Positions 1 to 7,735 are shown, counted from the stretch's first letter. The stretch: DNA of 11,172 nt from a virus (IMGVR_UViG_2778261217_000001:1-11172); one strand, 5' to 3'. The notes: generated by a model from the letters alone, not told the origin. Numbers and translations: made by a program.

Positions 1-1260
1 ATGAAGCTCAACGCCAGACAGGTCGAGACCGCAAAGCCAAAAGATAAAACCTACAAAATGGCCGATGGCGGCGGTTTATATCTTGAGGTTTCTGCAAAGG
101 GTTCTAAATACTGGCGCATGAAATACAGACGCCCCTCTGACAAAAAAGAGGATCGCCTCGCTTTTGGTGTTTGGCCTACCGTGACGCTTGCTCAGGCAAG
201 GGCAAAGCGTGATGAAGCTAAAAAGCTGTTAGTGCAGGGCATCGACCCAAAAGCCGAACAGAAAGAAGCTCAGGCCGTGAACTCGGGGGCATACACTTTC
301 GAAACTATCGCTCGTGAATGGCACGCCAGTAACAAGCGCTGGAGTGAAGACCATCGATCACGCGTTCTACGCTATCTTGAGCTTTATATTTTCCCCCATA
401 TCGGTTCGTCCGACATTCGGCAGCTTAAAACCAGCCACCTGTTAGCCCCGATTAAAAAAGTTGATGCCAGCGGCAAACACGATGTCGCTCAGCGCCTGCA
501 ACAGCGCGTCACGGCCATTATGCGTTATGCCGTACAGAATGATTACATCGACTCAAATCCAGCCAGCGATATGGCCGGTGCGCTATCGACAACCAAAGCG
601 CGACATTACCCGGCTTTACCTTCCAGCCGGTTCCCTGAGTTTCTTGCACATCTAGCTGCATATCGTGGCCGTGTAATGACACGGATCGCGGTCGAGCTTT
701 CCTTGCTAACTTTTGTGCGCTCCAGTGAGTTACGTTTCGCGCGTTGGGATGAATTCGACTTCGATAAATCTCTTTGGCGTATACCTGCAAAACGAGAAGA
801 AATTAAAGGCGTGCGTTATTCGTACCGAGGCATGAAGATGAAAGAGGAACATATCGTTCCGCTTAGTCGGCAGGCGATGATTTTATTGAATCAGTTAAAG
901 CAGATTAGTGGTGATAAAGAGCTGCTTTTTCCGGGGGATCACGACGCAACTAAGGTTATGAGTGAAAACACCGTAAACAATGCATTGCGTGCCATGGGTT
1001 ATGATACGAAAACTGAGGTCTGTGGGCATGGTTTTAGGACGATGGCGCGTGGTGCTTTGGGTGAGTCAGGGTTATGGAGTGATGATGCGATTGAGCGCCA
1101 GTTAAGCCACTCAGAACGTAACAATGTTCGTGCGGCGTATATTCATACTTCTGAGCATTTGGAAGAGCGTCGGCTTATGATTCAGTGGTGGGCTGATTAT
1201 TTGCAAGAGTGTTATAAAGGGCCAATAACGCCATACGAATTTGCAAAGAAATCTCAGTAG
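1..1260 (+). CDS. int: P4-type tyrosine integrase (site-specific recombinase)
   Basis: 419-aa ORF. N-terminus AKPKDKTYKMADGGGLYLEVSAKGSKYWRMKYR is typical of P4/CP4-57-type integrases; C-terminal catalytic motifs HGFRTMARG (H-x-x-R) and a tyrosine in AAYIHTSEH. ORF starts at window base 1, so no upstream tRNA/att context is visible. Confidence 0.9.
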   Translation: MKLNARQVETAKPKDKTYKMADGGGLYLEVSAKGSKYWRMKYRRPSDKKEDRLAFGVWPTVTLAQARAKRDEAKKLLVQGIDPKAEQKEAQAVNSGAYTFETIAREWHASNKRWSEDHRSRVLRYLELYIFPHIGSSDIRQLKTSHLLAPIKKVDASGKHDVAQRLQQRVTAIMRYAVQNDYIDSNPASDMAGALSTTKARHYPALPSSRFPEFLAHLAAYRGRVMTRIAVELSLLTFVRSSELRFARWDEFDFDKSLWRIPAKREEIKGVRYSYRGMKMKEEHIVPLSRQAMILLNQLKQISGDKELLFPGDHDATKVMSENTVNNALRAMGYDTKTEVCGHGFRTMARGALGESGLWSDDAIERQLSHSERNNVRAAYIHTSEHLEERRLMIQWWADYLQECYKGPITPYEFAKKSQ

Positions 1261-1280
1261 AAAACATAAAATCTATTAGT

Positions 1281-1296
1281 TGTGATAGATATCACT
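1281..1296. promoter_or_regulatory. CRP-like palindrome TGTGA-N6-TCACT upstream of the cargo operon (alternatively a weak int terminator stem)
   Basis: tgtgatagatatcact matches the CRP half-sites TGTGA / TCACA at 9 of 10 positions; perfect 6-bp inverted repeat gtgata/tatcac (1282..1287, 1290..1295); followed by a T-rich tract. Confidence 0.25.
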
Positions 1297-1406
1297 TTGT
1301 TTTTATTGAAATATAACGAGGTTTATGCATCATAGGGCATAGTGCAAGTATATAAATAGATAACAAGCTAATAATTTTTCAAGATAATTATATTAAGAGG
1401 TGTTTA

Positions 1407-1577
1407 ATGGAAGTTAACGTGGTCACCATTGTTTTGGGGGTGTGTTTGTTTGCTGCTATCGTTGCCGTGCCTGTATGGAAAATAAGCGCAAGATTTTTCT
1501 TCAAAGGAGGAGTAAAAAATAAACTCAAAAATGTTTCAATTAATGGCGATTATACTGGTCGAGATAAGAAAAATTAA
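1407..1577 (+). CDS. Small predicted membrane protein, 56 aa (not in ORF track)
   Basis: ATG at 1407 preceded by AAGAGG (1395..1400, 6-nt spacer). Translation MEVNVVTIVLGVCLFAAIVAVPVWKISARFFFKGGVKNKLKNVSINGDYTGRDKKN has one hydrophobic helix; ends in tandem stops TAA TAA. C-terminal 20 aa repeat the N-terminus of the next gene. Confidence 0.4.
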   Translation: MEVNVVTIVLGVCLFAAIVAVPVWKISARFFFKGGVKNKLKNVSINGDYTGRDKKN

Positions 1578-1652
1578 TAAGGCCATTGTATGGGTATTTT
1601 TAATAGGCTGAAAAATGTTTTTGTAAATGGTGATTATGTTGGAAGGGATAAA
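1509..1652 (+). repeat. In-frame imperfect tandem duplication (copies 1509..1568 and 1593..1652, offset 84 bp) spanning the end of the mini-ORF and the start of the 180-aa gene
   Basis: Peptide GVKNKLKNVSINGDYTGRDK versus GIFNRLKNVFVNGDYVGRDK (14/20 identical); the DNA copies align over about 46 bp at roughly 75% identity. Confidence 0.55.
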
Positions 1653-2132
1653 ATTGTCTATAATACAGAACCCACTCAGCTAATGCTATTGCAAGAGGAG
1701 TATCAGGAAGAGTTTAAAAATAGGCAAATTTGCACAGAAATGATTGATGAACTGAATCATTATAATACCAAAAAAAGTAAAGTGCGTGATTTGGAAGTTA
1801 AACTTAATGCTGCTGGGTACTCTTCCTTTCTTGACGAAGCTCGCGAGTTAAAAGAGTTGGTTTCGAAATTAATTATACAATATCAGCATTATCGCTCAGC
1901 ACAGAAAATAATCGCTTTTTTATTGTCAGACGTTCATTCAATTTTTCAATACAGAATAAAACCTCATATAGTAAATAAACAACAAGAGGCACAGATCCTT
2001 GAATTAATATATTTATATATAGAGTGTGAACTGAGTAGAAAGTTAGGTATAAATGCCTTGGAGATATATAATAGACAATTGCGTGGTATGGTTTTCTTCC
2101 TTACAGGAAACTGTCATTTGGAGTGGGAATAA
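1590..2132 (+). CDS. Hypothetical protein, 180 aa (cargo operon gene A; no recognisable motif)
   Basis: ORF in AT-rich island, same strand as and immediately after the mini-ORF; stop TAA overlaps the next start as TAATG (2130..2134). Confidence 0.6.
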   Translation: MGIFNRLKNVFVNGDYVGRDKIVYNTEPTQLMLLQEEYQEEFKNRQICTEMIDELNHYNTKKSKVRDLEVKLNAAGYSSFLDEARELKELVSKLIIQYQHYRSAQKIIAFLLSDVHSIFQYRIKPHIVNKQQEAQILELIYLYIECELSRKLGINALEIYNRQLRGMVFFLTGNCHLEWE

Positions 2133-2629
2133 TGTTATTATATAACAAGGCATTTGATATCAATCATACTATTCTAAGAATGTCTTCATGGCTGCTAAAT
2201 AGCTCTGAGCCGTTAATAAGTCTTGAGGGTATAAGAATATTTGACTTCTTAATAGCATTTCCTGAGTACATATCCAAGTTATCACTAGGGAAAGAATTAG
2301 TGAAGGAAAGAAATAAGTTCAAAAGGTTTTCTAACCCTTATAATGCTTTTGATCCTCAATCCTTGTTTCAGCAAATGGAAGGGGTGCAAAAATCTGCAAT
2401 TTGTTCTTTAGTAACAGCATCAGTTTTAGTAGAAATTAATAATGAATTATATGAAATAAAAAAAGATAAGTTATATGCGATTGGATTTACCAAAACCAAT
2501 CTTTTTGATAGCATAAACGAAGATGTGATCTCATTTATCAGTAACAATCTTGAGACATTACCTGTAACGGGAATAACTGGACTTAAGGCCGCTAGCAAAT
2601 TAATGAGTTTTAAATATGATCGTATATAA
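2132..2629 (+). CDS. Hypothetical protein, 165 aa (cargo operon gene B; ORF track starts it at GTG 2123)
   Basis: ATG at 2132 overlaps the upstream stop (TAATG); purine-rich ggagtggg at 2120..2127; 3' end overlaps the ATPase gene start by 14 nt. Confidence 0.6.
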   Translation: MLLYNKAFDINHTILRMSSWLLNSSEPLISLEGIRIFDFLIAFPEYISKLSLGKELVKERNKFKRFSNPYNAFDPQSLFQQMEGVQKSAICSLVTASVLVEINNELYEIKKDKLYAIGFTKTNLFDSINEDVISFISNNLETLPVTGITGLKAASKLMSFKYDRI

Positions 2630-4529
2630 TCCCACATTGAATATTAAAAAACTTTACGCATTCAAGGATGGTAAAGAGGTCATACACTTGAAGTTTCATA
2701 ATGGGCTGAATGTCATATATGGCTCGAACGGAAGCGGAAAAACCTCGGCAATTCAGTTACTCGCGTATGTTCTTGGTTCTACGATCTATAATTGGAAAGA
2801 AGAAGCAGGGAGTTGTGATTACGTTATAGCTGAAATTTACGCAAATGAGTCTACTATAACCATTCGTCGTGAGATAAGTGACACAATGGCAGGTATGAGC
2901 ATTTTTTTTGGTACATATGAAGAAAGTATCAAAGCAGGGAAAACTGGATGGTTTAGCTACCCCTACGCAATTTCTACTAACAAGGAAAGTTTTTCACAAC
3001 GTATCTTTGAAATCTTAAACATACCTGAGGCTAAATCTGACGGGATTAATAATCTTACTTTACATCAAATCCTAAGGCTGGTGTATAACAACCAATCTGA
3101 TTCTGCAACAAGTATATTTAACGACGAGAAGTTTGATTCCGCAATAAAACGAGAGTTTGTAAGTAATTATTTGCTCGGTTTGTATGATGATGATCTTTAT
3201 AATAATAAATTAGAGTATATTAAAAAAGAAAAAGAGCTAACAAAAACAATAGCTGAGTTAAAGGGTTTACTATTATTAATAGATGGTCAAGATCTTGATT
3301 TTAAATCTGATAATTTAGATAGCTTATCTGAACAATTACAGGGAAAGATCGATTCTATAATTGAAGAAATTGAAAAGTATAAAGAGTTAGATACACGGAT
3401 AAAATTTAGTAATGAAGTTAAGGCAATTAGTGCAGAACAATTAGTGAAGGATAAGAACAAGCTTATTGCCTTGGAGGTTGAATTAAGTCAAATACAATAT
3501 AATATTGTTGATTCAACCAAATTTATTGAAGAATTACAAAATAAATTACTTGCTATTAATGATTCAATTAAATTTAATAGTTCATTCAAGTTTAAAGAGT
3601 TCGATACCTGCCCATCATGTTTTACTAAGTTGCCAACTGCTCATGATGATAGTAAATGCTCTCTATGTGGTACAGAAGACCCGGATTCGGCAAAGCAAAT
3701 TAATTATGCTAGAATGAAAAATGAAATAATGATTCAAATCAACGAGTCACAAAATCTTTTGGAAAGGAATAAAATAAAGAGTGGTGAGATCTCAAAGCAA
3801 ATAAAATGCTTAAAAAGTGGAATGCGGAAAGAAGTTAACAAAGTTTCGGTTGTTAGTTCATCTTTGAATTCCCATGATGATAGCTTACTTTATAGTAAAT
3901 ATAAAGAGATTGGAGAGCTTGAAGAAAGACTAGATACTTTAGGTCGTATGGAGTCCGTTTATTCAAAAATTAAAACACTTCAGACTCTCCGCGATAGCTT
4001 ACAAGCCAGAGTTACATTTTTACAAGAAAACATTAGTAAAAAAGAACATGATCTTCAGTTAAAAATGCCAGCACTGAAAGAGAAAGTCAGTGAATATATG
4101 GAAGAAGTTTTAACTAAAGATGTCGAAAATATTGATGATCCTCATGATAAAGCTGAATTTAGTAACATAACTAGCATCGACTTTGATCTGGCTTCAAATA
4201 GGATTGTTGTCAATAATAAAGTCTCATTCTCTGAGAGCTCAATGTACTATCTTAATAATGCCCTGCATATAGCATTGCTAAAATTAAGTTTGGTTGATCC
4301 TAATGTAAGATTTCCACGTCTTTTAATTCTGGACGGTATAGAAAATGGTGGCATGGAAGATGCTCGCTCACAGGGTATCCAAAAAACTTTAAAAGAAATT
4401 TCTGATGAGTTTTGCGGGGTTCGGCATCAGATTATTATTACAACTAAAGGAATATACCATGCCGTTGATAATGATAAATATCGAGTTGGAGAAAAATTTA
4501 CTTCATCAAATCGTAGTTTAAATATGTGA
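2616..4529 (+). CDS. SMC/Rad50-like ABC ATPase, 637 aa (Walker A head, long coiled-coil, C-terminal Walker B-like segment)
   Basis: N-terminal LNVIYGSNGSGKTSAIQLLAYVLG (Walker A GSNGSGKT, SMC_N-like); long K/E/L/I-rich heptad-like middle containing CPSC-N13-CSLC (about 3609..3666); C-terminal FSESSMYYLNNALHIALL followed by RLLILDGIENGGMED (hydrophobic run ending in D, Walker B/D-loop-like). Confidence 0.8.
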   Translation: MIVYNPTLNIKKLYAFKDGKEVIHLKFHNGLNVIYGSNGSGKTSAIQLLAYVLGSTIYNWKEEAGSCDYVIAEIYANESTITIRREISDTMAGMSIFFGTYEESIKAGKTGWFSYPYAISTNKESFSQRIFEILNIPEAKSDGINNLTLHQILRLVYNNQSDSATSIFNDEKFDSAIKREFVSNYLLGLYDDDLYNNKLEYIKKEKELTKTIAELKGLLLLIDGQDLDFKSDNLDSLSEQLQGKIDSIIEEIEKYKELDTRIKFSNEVKAISAEQLVKDKNKLIALEVELSQIQYNIVDSTKFIEELQNKLLAINDSIKFNSSFKFKEFDTCPSCFTKLPTAHDDSKCSLCGTEDPDSAKQINYARMKNEIMIQINESQNLLERNKIKSGEISKQIKCLKSGMRKEVNKVSVVSSSLNSHDDSLLYSKYKEIGELEERLDTLGRMESVYSKIKTLQTLRDSLQARVTFLQENISKKEHDLQLKMPALKEKVSEYMEEVLTKDVENIDDPHDKAEFSNITSIDFDLASNRIVVNNKVSFSESSMYYLNNALHIALLKLSLVDPNVRFPRLLILDGIENGGMEDARSQGIQKTLKEISDEFCGVRHQIIITTKGIYHAVDNDKYRVGEKFTSSNRSLNM

Positions 4530-4539
4530 TTTTGAACAG

Positions 4540-4566
4540 GTGCGGCTTTAGCTGCACTTGTCTTTT
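4540..4566 (+). terminator. Candidate intrinsic terminator after the ATPase gene
   Basis: 7-bp stem gtgcggc/gctgcac (one G-U pair), loop ttta, then T-rich ttgtcttttg, 11 nt after the stop codon. Confidence 0.45.
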
Positions 4567-4761
4567 GAATAATAATATATCGCAATTATTAATTCCGTGT
4601 AACTTTATTATTGTCTATGTTATTTATAGATGTTGGCGTTATATTATCGGTCGATAATGGATTTGAGCTATTTTAGGTTAGTTAAAGTTGTTTTAAAAAT
4701 TCGATAAAGAAAATAATTTGATACTCACAAATCCTTTCTTAGCATACTTAAAGTACCTCTT

Positions 4762-4795
4762 ACGCGCGCAGCCCCGCCCGCCTGCCCGCTTCGCT
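4762..4795. other. GC-rich cos-like element (candidate packaging/cohesive-end site)
   Basis: acgcgcgcagccccgcccgcctgcccgcttcgc is an abrupt GC-rich block at the AT-rich island boundary; its reverse complement ggcgggcggggctgcgc resembles the P2/P4 cos end GGCGAGGCGGGGAAAGCAC as I recall it (partial match only). Confidence 0.25.
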
Positions 4796-4865
4796 TAACA
4801 GACTGGTTTTCATGCACCCCGTAAACCGTCTCAGAAGCCACCACACAAGGGCTTTCGCGTCAAAA

Positions 4866-4900: not shown

Positions 4901-4944
4901 AGATATGCACTCATACGCTCTCAGGCCAGCCAGGGAAAAGGCGT

Positions 4945-4969
4945 AAAAAATCCCGGTACTGGACCGGGA
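4945..4969 (-). terminator. Candidate intrinsic terminator of the sid-psu-delta operon
   Basis: Stem tcccggt/accggga (4951..4957, 4963..4969) with loop actgg; on the minus strand it is followed by TTTTTT (plus-strand aaaaaa 4945..4950); lies 23 nt past the delta stop. Confidence 0.45.
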
Positions 4970-4991
4970 CTTCGTGGTCGTATTTTGCTAA

Positions 4992-5264
4992 TCAGACAGG
5001 AATTTGCTGACGGTTTGACAGCTTTGACGCGGAGCCATAGCGATTGAGTGTTTGCTGTTGTTTTTCCGGTATTTTTGCTTTGTCTGATTCCTGTTCATTG
5101 CACTGAGGCTTCATAATGATCGTATCCACGCTTTCCAGTGCGGTAAATGTGCAGGAACATTCCAGATTCTGGCACTGATACCATGAGCGTTTAACCGACG
5201 GAGCTTCATAGGCGCTGGTTCTGGCGTGAGCGACCGCGCCACATTCAGGACACTTCAGGGCCAT
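4992..5264 (-). CDS. delta: Ogr/Delta-family zinc-finger late transcription activator, 90 aa (start moved to internal ATG)
   Basis: MALKCPECGAVAHARTSAYEAPSVKRSWYQCQNLECSCTFTALESVD carries the Ogr/Delta C-x2-C ... C-x4-C pattern. ATG at 5264..5262 is preceded by AAGGAG and sits 1 nt after the psu stop; the ORF-track start at 5366 would overlap psu by about 100 nt. Confidence 0.85.
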   Translation of the reverse strand: MALKCPECGAVAHARTSAYEAPSVKRSWYQCQNLECSCTFTALESVDTIIMKPQCNEQESDKAKIPEKQQQTLNRYGSASKLSNRQQIPV

Positions 5265-5265
5265 A

Positions 5266-5820
5266 TCAGCACACTCCTTTTTCATTAAGTCGGTTAAGGC
5301 GGGCCAGGAAAACTTTATGTTGTGCCGGGGTGAAACTGGCTGAAGCATCAGCGCGCATTGATGCATCCACCGTTAATCCGGTTTCGTCGATAATGCTCTT
5401 ATATGCTGCTGAAATTACCGGAGTACGGACTTCCGTTTGTCGGGCTACAGCGGTTCGTAATATTTTCATTGCCGCCTCAAGCCCGTATGGTGCACAAAGA
5501 AAAGGAGCCAGAGCGTCAGTGAGTGCATCACCATGCTCGCTCATGAAGTTTTCAGTTGCGCTTGTAACACAGCTTTCCAGCACAATCTGGTGAGCATAAA
5601 GACCATCCCGGGCGGCACAGTTAATCTGCCATTCGAGGAGTGCAAGACGCTCACGAAGATCCTCAAGTTGGCTGGCATATGCTGCGGGTTTTTCTTCAGT
5701 ATCCAGCAAAGCAGCCAGACGAAGCTGGCTGGTACTTTGCACATTACGTAGTGTCAGCCAGCTTTTTATTGCCGCGCGGTAATCGTTGAGAGCTTCCTGA
5801 GTAATGGTTCCGGTATTCAT
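5266..5820 (-). CDS. psu: Psu-like polarity suppression protein, 184 aa
   Basis: Size and motifs (EHGDALTDALAPFL, FTPAQHKVF) match my recollection of P4 Psu (about 190 aa); start ATG overlaps the sid stop (ATGA, 5817..5820). Confidence 0.75.
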   Translation of the reverse strand: MNTGTITQEALNDYRAAIKSWLTLRNVQSTSQLRLAALLDTEEKPAAYASQLEDLRERLALLEWQINCAARDGLYAHQIVLESCVTSATENFMSEHGDALTDALAPFLCAPYGLEAAMKILRTAVARQTEVRTPVISAAYKSIIDETGLTVDASMRADASASFTPAQHKVFLARLNRLNEKGVC

Positions 5821-6569: not shown

Positions 6570-6603
6570 GGCTGCTCCGGTAGTGTTTTGTTGTTGTGTC
6601 AAT

Positions 6604-6659
6604 TGTGCCGGGGTCCATACAAGCGCACTACCGAGGAGGATTGTGTCAGTGACTGAACA
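6604..6659 (-). promoter_or_regulatory. Two TGT-N12-ACA elements upstream of sid (candidate Delta/Ogr-responsive late promoter)
   Basis: tgtgccggggtccataca (6604..6621) and tgtgtcagtgactgaaca (6642..6659); TGT-N12-ACA is the consensus for Ogr/Delta-activated P2/P4 late promoters; the distal site centre is about 81 nt upstream of the sid ATG. Confidence 0.4.
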
Positions 6660-6726
6660 ATGACCTTGTTCTGGCTAGCCAGAGAAAGGTGTCATGTCTG
6701 ATCTATACGCTTCCTTTAATACATAC

Positions 6727-6930
6727 TATTCACTACTGTTCACTTCAATAAAAATATAGTAAATACATGTGGTTAAGTGGTGTAGTGTTTTAATTAAAGT
6801 GATCATCTACTGTTCATGACTGTTCACAGAGATAAAATTAAACATATATTTTTTTTTCATATAAGTCGCGATATTTATTTCAGTTTATTACTGGATCTTT
6901 TCTCCTCACCAATATTCACCAGTATTCAAT
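6727..6930. repeat. Iteron-like direct repeats in the AT-rich divergent region (candidate ori)
   Basis: Exact 8-mer actgttca three times in one orientation (6735..6742, 6809..6816, 6819..6826), plus tattcacc (6913..6920) and tattcaat (6923..6930); these resemble the P4 alpha-binding iteron TGTTCACC as I recall it. Confidence 0.35.
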
Positions 6931-7474
6931 ACATATTCTATGTAAAGAATAAAAGATGTCTTATGTCTGTTTAATAATTAAACATTCAACCTCCCTGCAC
7001 TCAGTTGCATTTCAGGAAAATATTCATAAAAATGAATTTGTCTGATGTTCATTAAACACATCCGGATACATGCGGAAGTAAGATGGTAATTTAATTTCTT
7101 TAATCATCGGATTTATTGATACATATGGTGAGCTGTTTATTTTTGGCCGTTTTTGGCTCTTTTATTAATCAGGTGTTGTCTTAGTGCTTATGATGTAACG
7201 CCCTGAATGATATGGGCTGGTTCAGATTTGAGCTGTGATCCTGCCTAGTGTAATAGACTTTTTTATTATTGATGCTCCTTATTATATTCCATAAAGGAAT
7301 TGTTTGTTTTTGTTCGTTTCATACGGTTTTTAGCTGTTTTATTTTTTGAGAAATCAACATTTCACACAAAATAAATAAAGCATGCGCGAGCCGCTTATAT
7401 AAACATAATAAGGAGCTACCTGAATCCGCATGGAATTGCCCGGACTGTTGTAAACATATTAGAGAGGTAGCCAG

Positions 7475-7735
7475 ATGAATAGTATTTCCGTTTCCACCCC
7501 GGCACCAGCTGCTCCGGTGCTCCCGGTTCCGGCTCAGCAGGAGCGCTTCATACGATTACCTGAAGTGATGCACCTTTGCGGGCTATCCCGTTCAACCATC
7601 TACGACCTTATCAGCCGCGATGCCTTCCCGCAGCAGATATCCCTGGGTGGAAAAAATGTGGCCTGGGTACAGTCGGAGGTCAGTGCATGGATGGCGGCGC
7701 GAATTGCTGCCCGCGAGCAAGGAGGCCATGCGTGA
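7475..7735 (+). CDS. alpA: AlpA-family (Vis-like) phage transcriptional regulator / excisionase-like DNA-binding protein, 86 aa
   Basis: [50 protein letters not shown] is the characteristic AlpA/MerR-like HTH core; SD gagg with 7-nt spacer before ATG 7475. Confidence 0.85.

Follow-up and report, generated by a model that had tools for sequence, protein, structure and literature searches.

Lamassu (ABC-3C) systems are recognized by an ABC ATPase (LmuB), a middle component encoded between effector and ATPase (LmuC), and an effector (LmuA) that ends in a C-terminal domain (CTD) and usually begins with an enzymatic domain, which may be a nuclease, Sir2, protease, lipase, or one of several others. 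Two cryo-EM studies have described the LmuA CTD as an oligomerization module that LmuB2-LmuC keeps bound until DNA is sensed, and how oligomerization of LmuA activates effectors other than nucleases has been left open in the structural literature. For proteins carrying the CTD9 class of this domain, cyclic oligomers have been predicted by others, and CTD9 is mentioned in the literature searched for lipase-type LmuA only. Here we describe a four-gene block at positions 1407–4529 of an 11,172-nucleotide viral DNA (IMGVR_UViG_2778261217_000001:1-11172; this whole stretch is referred to below as the window), in which a Lamassu core is accompanied by a gene pair of the kind that is known from amyloid signaling.

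Amyloid signaling pairs have been found in both fungi and bacteria by the criterion of a motif shared between the C terminus of one protein and the N terminus of another encoded by adjacent genes. The bacterial motifs described (BASS) are enriched in N, G, Q, V, and I and depleted in P and L, with pseudo-repeats that stack as a β-solenoid. For Bab/Agp of Escherichia coli ECOR25 (BASS11), experiments have established that abortive infection is driven by amyloid signaling: the BASS11 motif at the N terminus of a TPR-GreA/B-C-PIN sensor activates a protein of 109 residues with an N-terminal hydrophobic helix; the paper on this system makes no mention of Lamassu, ABC, or SMC.

The window has the same three-gene core, in the same order, as Type II Lamassu/ABC-3C/DdmABC (Salmonella enterica LmuACB, PDB 9hqx), with which it has in common a full-length match to an LmuB hidden Markov model, a Pfam MC family, and a Pfam CTD family, and by analogy the sequestration, release, and oligomerization of LmuA would be expected to proceed alike. 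It differs from Type II Lamassu in that its LmuA begins with a tag of ∼25 residues, predicted to be disordered, rather than with an enzymatic domain, and in that an extra gene upstream encodes a putative membrane protein of 56 residues bearing the same tag. Judged from sequence, the pairing of an effector-less LmuA with a separately encoded membrane protein of 56 residues, through a 20-residue tag that co-varies between the two, is a new and widespread arrangement that joins two known kinds of system, and the genomic signature of amyloid signaling pairs (HET-S/NWD2, Bell/NLR, and Bab/Agp) is present in this type of Lamassu.

The tag shared by the small protein and the LmuA-like adaptor

The two open reading frames (ORFs) at the head of the block, which encode 56 and 180 residues, share a motif of 16–20 residues that is also visible in the DNA as a repeat (1518–1567 and 1602–1651) of 74% identity. 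We scored such pairs in 80 related loci from one-per-species genomes of the Gamma-, Alpha-, and Deltaproteobacteria, Campylobacterota, Bacteroidota, Verrucomicrobia, Elusimicrobia, Acidobacteria, Cyanobacteria, and Firmicutes by local alignment of the upstream same-strand ORF to the N terminus of its own CTD9 protein, using a cut-off of 44 and a control of 1420 shuffles, in which the maximum score was 43. The window pair (residues 39–54 against residues 6–21, from genes 12 nucleotides apart) scored 81, first among all loci, and the upstream ORF scored above all shuffles in 65 of the 73 loci with a short CTD9 protein. A hydrophobic helix was present in 60 of these 65 paired small proteins, and in 55 of the 65 the matching segment ended at most 8 residues from the C terminus. 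The aligned tags had a median length of 20 residues (interquartile range 18–25), and the genes of a pair are separated by short gaps or overlap, as in BASS pairs. An earlier, preliminary description of the block from its sequence alone had listed the 56-residue ORF without giving it a role; the motif shared with the CTD9 N terminus makes it the best candidate for the missing effector.

Across the loci the tag changes in sequence, and the two members of a pair change together. Self scores had a median of about 58–61, compared with a cross-locus median of 28, and the own partner beat every partner from loci whose CTD9 domain was <40% identical in 49 of the 65 cases, with a mean z of 5.2. At least five unrelated tag classes could be distinguished (GDxxGRD-like, QTAGKNSTQYQSGGNMT-like, AGGHIAGG-like, NGNAIGxNYG-like, and GNPG...NFNPNA-like), each of them matched within its locus. 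The two copies of a tag show 57% amino acid identity and 61% nucleotide identity, with 53% of the identical residues specified by different codons, and the match is therefore held at the level of the protein. In composition the tags are enriched in N (2.8-fold), G (2.4-fold), V (1.6-fold), and I (1.2-fold) and are poor in L (0.24-fold) and P (0.23-fold), whereas they depart from the published BASS bias in Q (1.1-fold), in K (1.2-fold, and so not depleted), and in D (1.6-fold). The effector carries two copies of the tag and the sensor one in four loci (L046, L047, L048, and L062); similar doubled tags occur in L080 and L081, but with pair scores of 37–40, below the cut-off. As read from these alignments, the tag pair co-varies across bacterial phyla under a protein-level constraint and has a BASS-like composition.

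Other origins of the shared motif were considered and rejected. The 56- and 180-residue ORFs lie in the same frame and might be read as one gene interrupted by a nonsense mutation. Yet two stops stand in a row between them, and each ORF has a start codon of its own; in addition, in Photobacterium the small ORF uses another frame and runs into the start of the CTD9 gene, all of the ∼50 CTD9 homologues begin at the tag, and the two-gene layout recurs in 65 of 73 loci. A recent DNA duplication or gene conversion is argued against by the nucleotide identity of 0.61 and by the 53% of identical residues with different codons, and a chance similarity of composition by the shuffles, all of which scored 43 or less against the median self score of 58–61.

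The 56-residue protein has no family match in Pfam, PADLOC, or NCBIfam. Its predicted transmembrane helix (residues 5–24) is modeled by AlphaFold2 as a helix with a predicted local distance difference test (pLDDT) score of 80–88, and a basic linker lies between this helix and the C-terminal motif. Among 59 homologues, K plus R averages 0.7 before the helix and 3.9 after it, and by the positive-inside rule the topology is therefore predicted to be N-out/C-in, so that the tag would face the cytoplasm. Purifying selection acts on the small gene, with a ratio of nonsynonymous to synonymous substitution (dN/dS) of 0.06 between E. coli and Morganella at a dS of 1.4 and a median of 0.15 over 73 pairs, and a syntenic small ORF is found in both Morganella and Photobacterium.

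Several variations on the small partner were seen. In Prevotella, Parabacteroides, and Bacteroidaceae metagenome-assembled genomes, the upstream partner is a soluble protein of 150–175 residues with no Pfam match (L052 2691–3218, L055 3347–3796, L063 1232–1753, and L064 112–633) and carries its motif, GNPGTGNTFQ...NFNPNATTVINNY, at the N terminus, as does the CTD9 protein; it may be a different trans-acting effector that follows the same tag logic. The small partner is reversed in two uncultured Alphaproteobacteria (L049 3764–3946 and L061 3773–3946), with the motif N-terminal and the hydrophobic segment C-terminal. In eight Bacteroidota loci (L038, L041, L042, L044, L045, L056, L058, and L075) the small protein begins with ME-x-IS-IIAD-x-CGILGF, which resembles the "MEPIS" pore-lining region of Bab, Bell, Hell, and some Avs/bNACHT proteins; a start of the form M-[ED]-x0-2-[ILV]-[ST] is found in 19 of 59 small proteins.

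Two of the nine E. coli copies of the block look inactivated. E. coli elppa5 (L002, NZ_CP083503) has A7 in place of A6 at window positions 1514–1519, which shifts the small ORF, unannotated in this genome, into a stop just before the motif and could reflect either a natural loss of the tail or an error in sequencing the homopolymer. In E. coli GPEC60-12-649 (L088 2952–3649, NZ_CM160084) an IS1 element at about window position 3700 splits lmuB into two ORFs.

Set beside Bab/Agp, the pair has much in common with it. The genes are collinear neighbors, the small protein has a hydrophobic helix in its N-terminal part and a motif of ∼20 residues at its C terminus, and the sensor-side protein carries this motif at its N terminus. 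Both systems lie in a prophage or defense hotspot, and for both it is proposed that killing at the membrane follows oligomerization of the sensor. In contrast to Bab, which has 109 residues and a four-helix "Babybell" sheath, the window protein has 56 residues and a bare transmembrane helix, and its motif is different in sequence from BASS11 and more charged; amyloid behavior has been shown for BASS11, whereas for the window motif it is a proposal. With the Bell/NLR BASS pairs and the fungal HET-S/NWD2 pair the window shares the C- and N-terminal placement of the motif in adjacent, often overlapping genes, and its relatives show the N/G/V-rich, L/P-poor composition, the pseudo-repeats on the effector side, and the "all-in-one" forms, but the window has neither an NLR/STAND NTPase nor a Bell/HeLo domain. 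Overall, a short motif shared by adjacent collinear genes and a composition of the β-arch/β-solenoid type are present, as in amyloid pairs, whereas in place of a HeLo, Hell, Bell, or Babybell domain there is a single hydrophobic helix with no Pfam match. The sensor-side adaptor is neither an NLR nor a TGP protein and is of the LmuA CTD type, which oligomerizes in other Lamassu subtypes and is only predicted to do so for CTD9. The hosts are mostly unicellular and belong to many phyla, whereas BASS1–10 were reported mainly in Actinobacteria and Cyanobacteria.

The three-gene core and the short LmuA-like protein

From its profile matches the block almost certainly belongs to the Lamassu/ABC-3C family, and this part is not new, having been named already by automated annotation: NCBI labels the three proteins in the nine E. 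coli genomes "ABC-three component system protein," "middle component 5," and "AAA family ATPase." All three hallmarks of the family were found, namely an LmuB, a middle component encoded between effector and ATPase, and a C-terminal CTD on the LmuA-like protein. The preliminary description had seen an SMC/Rad50-like ABC ATPase with K42 as its Walker A lysine, in a layout resembling ABC-3C/Lamassu-type systems, and was right in each respect. The ATPase matches the PADLOC LmuB model (8.1e-35), with residues 8–623 aligned to PDLC03859 positions 3–592 of 611, and also Pfam AAA_23 (5.6e-9) and SMC_N; K42 falls within GSNGSGKT (residues 36–43); and LmuB, MC5, and CTD9 are all matched by profiles. 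Its two "unrecognised partners" can now be named, as the 180-residue protein is a CTD9 protein (6.4e-29) and the 165-residue protein an MC5 (2.2e-31), in agreement with the RefSeq names. The idea that the block is a divergent or undescribed variant, which the description had set against a match of the genes to a named system, survives in part: three of the four genes do match a named system, by profile hidden Markov models and by NCBI names, and it is the effector arrangement that is new.

The C-terminal domain of the 180-residue protein is structurally closest to solved LmuA. For the 165-residue protein the Pfam match lies above the curated cut-off and the PADLOC LmuC match is weak (2.3e-3); RefSeq starts this gene at the ATG at 2132 (165 residues), and an alternative GTG start lies at 2123 (168 residues). 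Directly downstream of the CTD9 gene come homologues of MC5 and LmuB in 82 of 83 loci, and the Walker A motif, the signature-like FSESS, the Walker B Asp-573, and the apical four-cysteine motif of LmuB are conserved in 71 homologues. In this set the four cysteines of CPSC-x12-CSLC are each present at ≥95%, and the motif looks like a full zinc ribbon in each protomer rather than the half-site of a Rad50 CxxC hook. The Walker B aspartate is followed by a glycine, where ABC ATPases usually have the catalytic glutamate, and an invariant Glu-576 lies three residues on; to judge from these residues, this clade of LmuB may bind ATP with poor or different hydrolysis.

No enzyme domain was detected on the LmuA-like protein by any Pfam effector, PADLOC LmuA, or NCBIfam model, and the N-terminal enzymatic domain that is usual for LmuA has no room here. 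Just ∼28 residues precede the CTD9 helical domain, and residues 1–25 are disordered in the monomer AlphaFold2 model (pLDDT <50), so that the large effector noted as missing in the preliminary description is indeed missing. Within the N-terminal motif Asp-15, Gly-18, and Asp-20 are invariant or nearly so in 28 homologues. The length of 180 residues does not reflect a truncation, because the homologues are uniformly short: the ∼50 CTD9-protein homologues found are all of ∼180 residues, and in the best 150 of 579 representative clusters nearly all lengths fall between 178 and 215 residues. On the evidence of these sequences, a disordered tag of ∼20 residues stands where LmuA would otherwise have its enzyme domain. 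No other toxic domain was found in the operon with Pfam, PADLOC, or NCBIfam, and a tblastn search with the CTD9 protein returned no phage record and five distant rhizobial plasmid matches only.

Among the relatives are "all-in-one" proteins in which a lipase-like α/β-hydrolase is fused to CTD9 (L070, L083, and L084). The loci with a lipase-type LmuA (L070, L074, L078, L079, L083, and L084) have the same CTD9, MC5, and LmuB families in the same gene order, but unlike the window their effector is covalently fused and there is no small membrane gene upstream; by comparison, lipase-type LmuA is probably also membrane- or lipid-directed. Two other Lamassu variants, Lamassu-var (Domainator, CP038295) and Syst.5 LmuBC_SMEK, resemble the window in lying in the P4 hotspot and in having an LmuA that is missed by defense-finding tools. 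Identity with either was rejected. The middle component of Lamassu-var is MC2, and its Mrr-like nuclease is split and lies upstream of the CTD protein; Syst.5 has a SMEK-type first gene; and neither has a pair of transmembrane protein and tag or shares sequence with the window. In Lamassu-var, an abundant variant of the P4 hotspot, as seen in E. coli O55:H7 TB182A (L087 5952–6958, NZ_CP038295), the Mrr/PD-(D/E)xK-like nuclease (GDKGRDVVG...YQCK) appears to be on a separate 138-residue ORF that overlaps the start of the 205-residue CTD protein, so that the effector looks split, or is possibly frameshifted.

The cargo block in its P4-like satellite

The window is a P4-like satellite inserted beside tRNA-Leu, with the order tRNA-Leu, int, cargo, delta, psu, and sid, and further on a helix-turn-helix regulator gene and Icd-like and primase-type (α-type primase) genes. 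A C4 antisense RNA (83.4 bits, E value of 1.2e-15) and isrK were also found, both beyond delta/psu/sid. The four-gene block is cargo in the int–delta hotspot of P4, a variable block between the integrase on one side and delta/psu/sid on the other, as the preliminary description had placed it. The features are collected in the table.

Positions of the cargo genes, their motifs, and flanking features in the window
Feature	Position	Strand	Residues	Basis or remark
Tyrosine integrase	1–1260			
Shine-Dalgarno-like AAGAGG	1395–1400	+		6 nucleotides 5′ of the small-gene ATG; read from sequence
Small gene, 56-residue single-pass membrane protein, proposed trans-acting effector	1407–1577	+	1–56	ORF; RefSeq hypothetical WP_001472782.1
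Predicted transmembrane helix, VVTIVLGVCLFAAIVAVPVW	1419–1478	+	5–24	Kyte-Doolittle 3.02, best 17-residue window
C-terminal shared motif of small protein, KLKNVSINGDYTGRDK	1521–1568	+	39–54	Matches CTD9 N terminus; DNA repeat D1
LmuA-like adaptor, 180 residues, short N-terminal motif plus ABC-3C CTD9 helical domain	1590–2132	+	1–180	Pfam CTD9 6.4e-29
N-terminal shared motif of CTD9 protein, RLKNVFVNGDYVGRDK	1605–1652	+	6–21	
LmuC, ABC-3C middle component 5 (MC5), 165 residues	2132–2629	+	1–165	Pfam MC5 2.2e-31, model 1–167/167
LmuB, SMC/Rad50-like ABC ATPase, 637 residues, presumed DNA sensor	2616–4529	+	1–637	PADLOC LmuB PDLC03859 8.1e-35
LmuB Walker A, GSNGSGKT	2721–2744		36–43	
LmuB CPSC-x12-CSLC, coiled-coil apex	3609–3668		332–351	
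LmuB Walker B, LLILD-G-I-E	4320–4343		569–576	
Intrinsic-terminator-like hairpin and T-run, operon end	4536–4571	+		Hairpin and T-run at 4536–4561; 11-bp stem, −17.2 kcal/mol, z = −3.96
delta/psu/sid		−		Other side of the cargo block from the integrase

Much of the layout had been reported correctly before. The ORF listing gives the same four same-strand genes, of 56, 180, 165, and 637 residues (1407–1577, 1590–2132, 2123/2132–2629, and 2616–4529), both overlaps are present in the sequence (TAATG at 2130–2134 and 14 nucleotides at 2616–2629), and the block is AT-rich, with a GC content of 0.25–0.37 over positions 1200–4800 compared with ∼0.47–0.56 in the satellite backbone. A promoter was not located, the candidate hexamers at 1306–1333 and 1360–1388 being no commoner than in shuffled sequence. 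The identical block was found in 9 of 5426 complete E. coli genomes, and other E. coli genomes match only the flanks of the window, with no match to the cargo.

Elsewhere in the satellite, a second AT-rich stretch (6600–7400, GC content 0.30–0.34) is found between sid and the gene at 7475 for the helix-turn-helix regulator and contains no ORF of more than 52 residues. The ogr/Delta-like delta gene (window 4904–5366, compared with 12644–12841 in L001) is annotated by RefSeq as an incomplete pseudogene in NIPH17_0036 and is intact in elppa5; an ORF of 124 residues at 4992–5366 spans this region.

A proposed tag-coupled membrane effector and its alternatives

The reading that we favor, with somewhat better than even confidence, is that the block is a Lamassu (CTD9/MC5 type) abortive-infection system with a tag-coupled membrane effector. 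By analogy with solved Lamassu complexes, the CTD9 domain would at rest be sequestered by LmuB2-LmuC. Sensing of phage or plasmid DNA by LmuB would free the adaptor, which would then oligomerize through CTD9 and so bring its N-terminal tags together. The clustered tags would then capture the matching tails of the small protein, most likely by cross-β (amyloid-like) templating as in Bab/Agp and NWD2/HET-S, and the transmembrane helices would gather into an oligomer that permeabilizes the inner membrane, so that the infected cell dies. The parts of this scheme are not equally secure. The sequence data make it very likely that the small gene provides a working fourth component, coupled by way of its tag, and that the small protein is a membrane-acting killer is reasonably probable by analogy with its counterparts. 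True amyloid templating as the means of coupling, again argued from analogy, is plausible but somewhat short of an even chance, and we hold with similar reserve the full proposal, in which a Lamassu subtype delegates killing to a sheath-less transmembrane peptide through a prion-like cross-β switch, nucleated by the tag of an effector-less LmuA after CTD9 release and oligomerization. A role in phage defense is likewise suggested by the likeness to described systems. The CTD9 subtype comprises hundreds of clusters at 50% identity in at least 8 phyla, and neither a transmembrane nor a motif-only LmuA appears among the effector types in the Lamassu review and primary literature checked.

Several points weigh against the favored reading. 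With its GRDK residues the tag carries more charge than the published BASS motifs, in which K is depleted. Missing from the small protein is a helical sheath of the Bell/Babybell type, which keeps the known executioners soluble until they are triggered; the small protein is therefore probably always in the membrane, and another form of control would be needed. AlphaFold2 gave no β structure, the tag being disordered in the adaptor and a low-confidence helix in the small protein (single sequence); the latter was modeled without an alignment as one long helix of falling confidence, which is uninformative on the tail. Two other effector-less P4 Lamassu variants, of different subtypes, gave weak or no protection when tested, and the literature searched yielded no test of a CTD9/MC5 system built in this way. 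A link between Lamassu and amyloid signaling was not found in the searchable literature either, where texts that name both "Lamassu" and "amyloid" concern other matters; Krishnan et al. 2020, in which ABC-3C was first described, lies outside that search and may mention the architecture.

Part of the same evidence could be accommodated by a constitutive tether, a rather unlikely alternative in which the tags form a stoichiometric β-strand contact and the small protein anchors the adaptor, or LmuACB, to the inner membrane. Killing or exclusion would be due to CTD9 oligomers, to LmuB, or to clustering of the anchor, with no templated conformational change. The pair architecture and its co-variation require mutual recognition only and not amyloid, the tag is short and charged, and a small protein without a sheath would probably be inserted in the membrane at all times, all of which suits an anchor. 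However, an N/G/V-rich, L/P-poor tag that is doubled in some effectors has the features of a stacking β-solenoid, the tag-bearing partner of Prevotella-type loci is soluble, so that anchoring is not universal, and a tether would leave the system without an effector. The lack of any other candidate toxic domain in the operon also counts against the improbable view of the small protein as a regulator or decoy, whose tail would mimic the N terminus of the adaptor and compete for a site on LmuB, LmuC, or a protease, setting an activation threshold or acting as an antitoxin while toxicity resides elsewhere. Molecular mimicry would also give co-variation within a locus, and Li et al. emphasize that free LmuA must be prevented from functioning, but the N-terminal part of LmuA contacts neither LmuB nor LmuC in the solved complexes, and the all-in-one relatives place their lipase-like effector exactly at the position of the tag, which points to an output and not to a regulator.

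A very improbable reading, finally, is that the block is decayed or serves no defense, being either what is left of a Lamassu system that lost its effector or an SMC-like module that performs housekeeping or a task of the satellite, with the small ORF incidental. Its rarity in E. coli (the 9 of 5426 genomes above), the frameshift in the small ORF of one copy and the IS1 in lmuB of another, and the failure of a different effector-less P4 Lamassu to protect would fit such decay. Against it stand the retention of the four-gene layout from Gammaproteobacteria to Bacteroidota, Verrucomicrobia, and Cyanobacteria, the purifying selection on the small ORF, the 579 representative clusters of the family, and contexts typical of mobile elements and defense (the P4 hotspot, the edge of a Morganella prophage, integrase-flanked loci in Photobacterium, and rhizobial plasmids).

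For the annotation of the family, the arrangement has a direct consequence. PADLOC has no LmuA model for the adaptor, and such loci are therefore probably counted as incomplete Lamassu; with a tag-pair rule and a profile of the small gene added, the annotation of a family of ∼580 representative clusters would be mended. With respect to function, the oligomerization of LmuA would here be read out by the clustering of tags alone, and the open question of how it activates effectors would become directly testable. If the full proposal is true, the 56-residue protein would be the smallest known amyloid-controlled executioner of cell death and a very small modular kill switch. Bacterial amyloid signaling has so far been proven for one system only, Bab/Agp; signaling of this type would then reach an SMC-family sensor in ordinary unicellular bacteria, and amyloid signaling would be a plug-in output for SMC-type DNA sensors, besides those of the NLR and TGP types.

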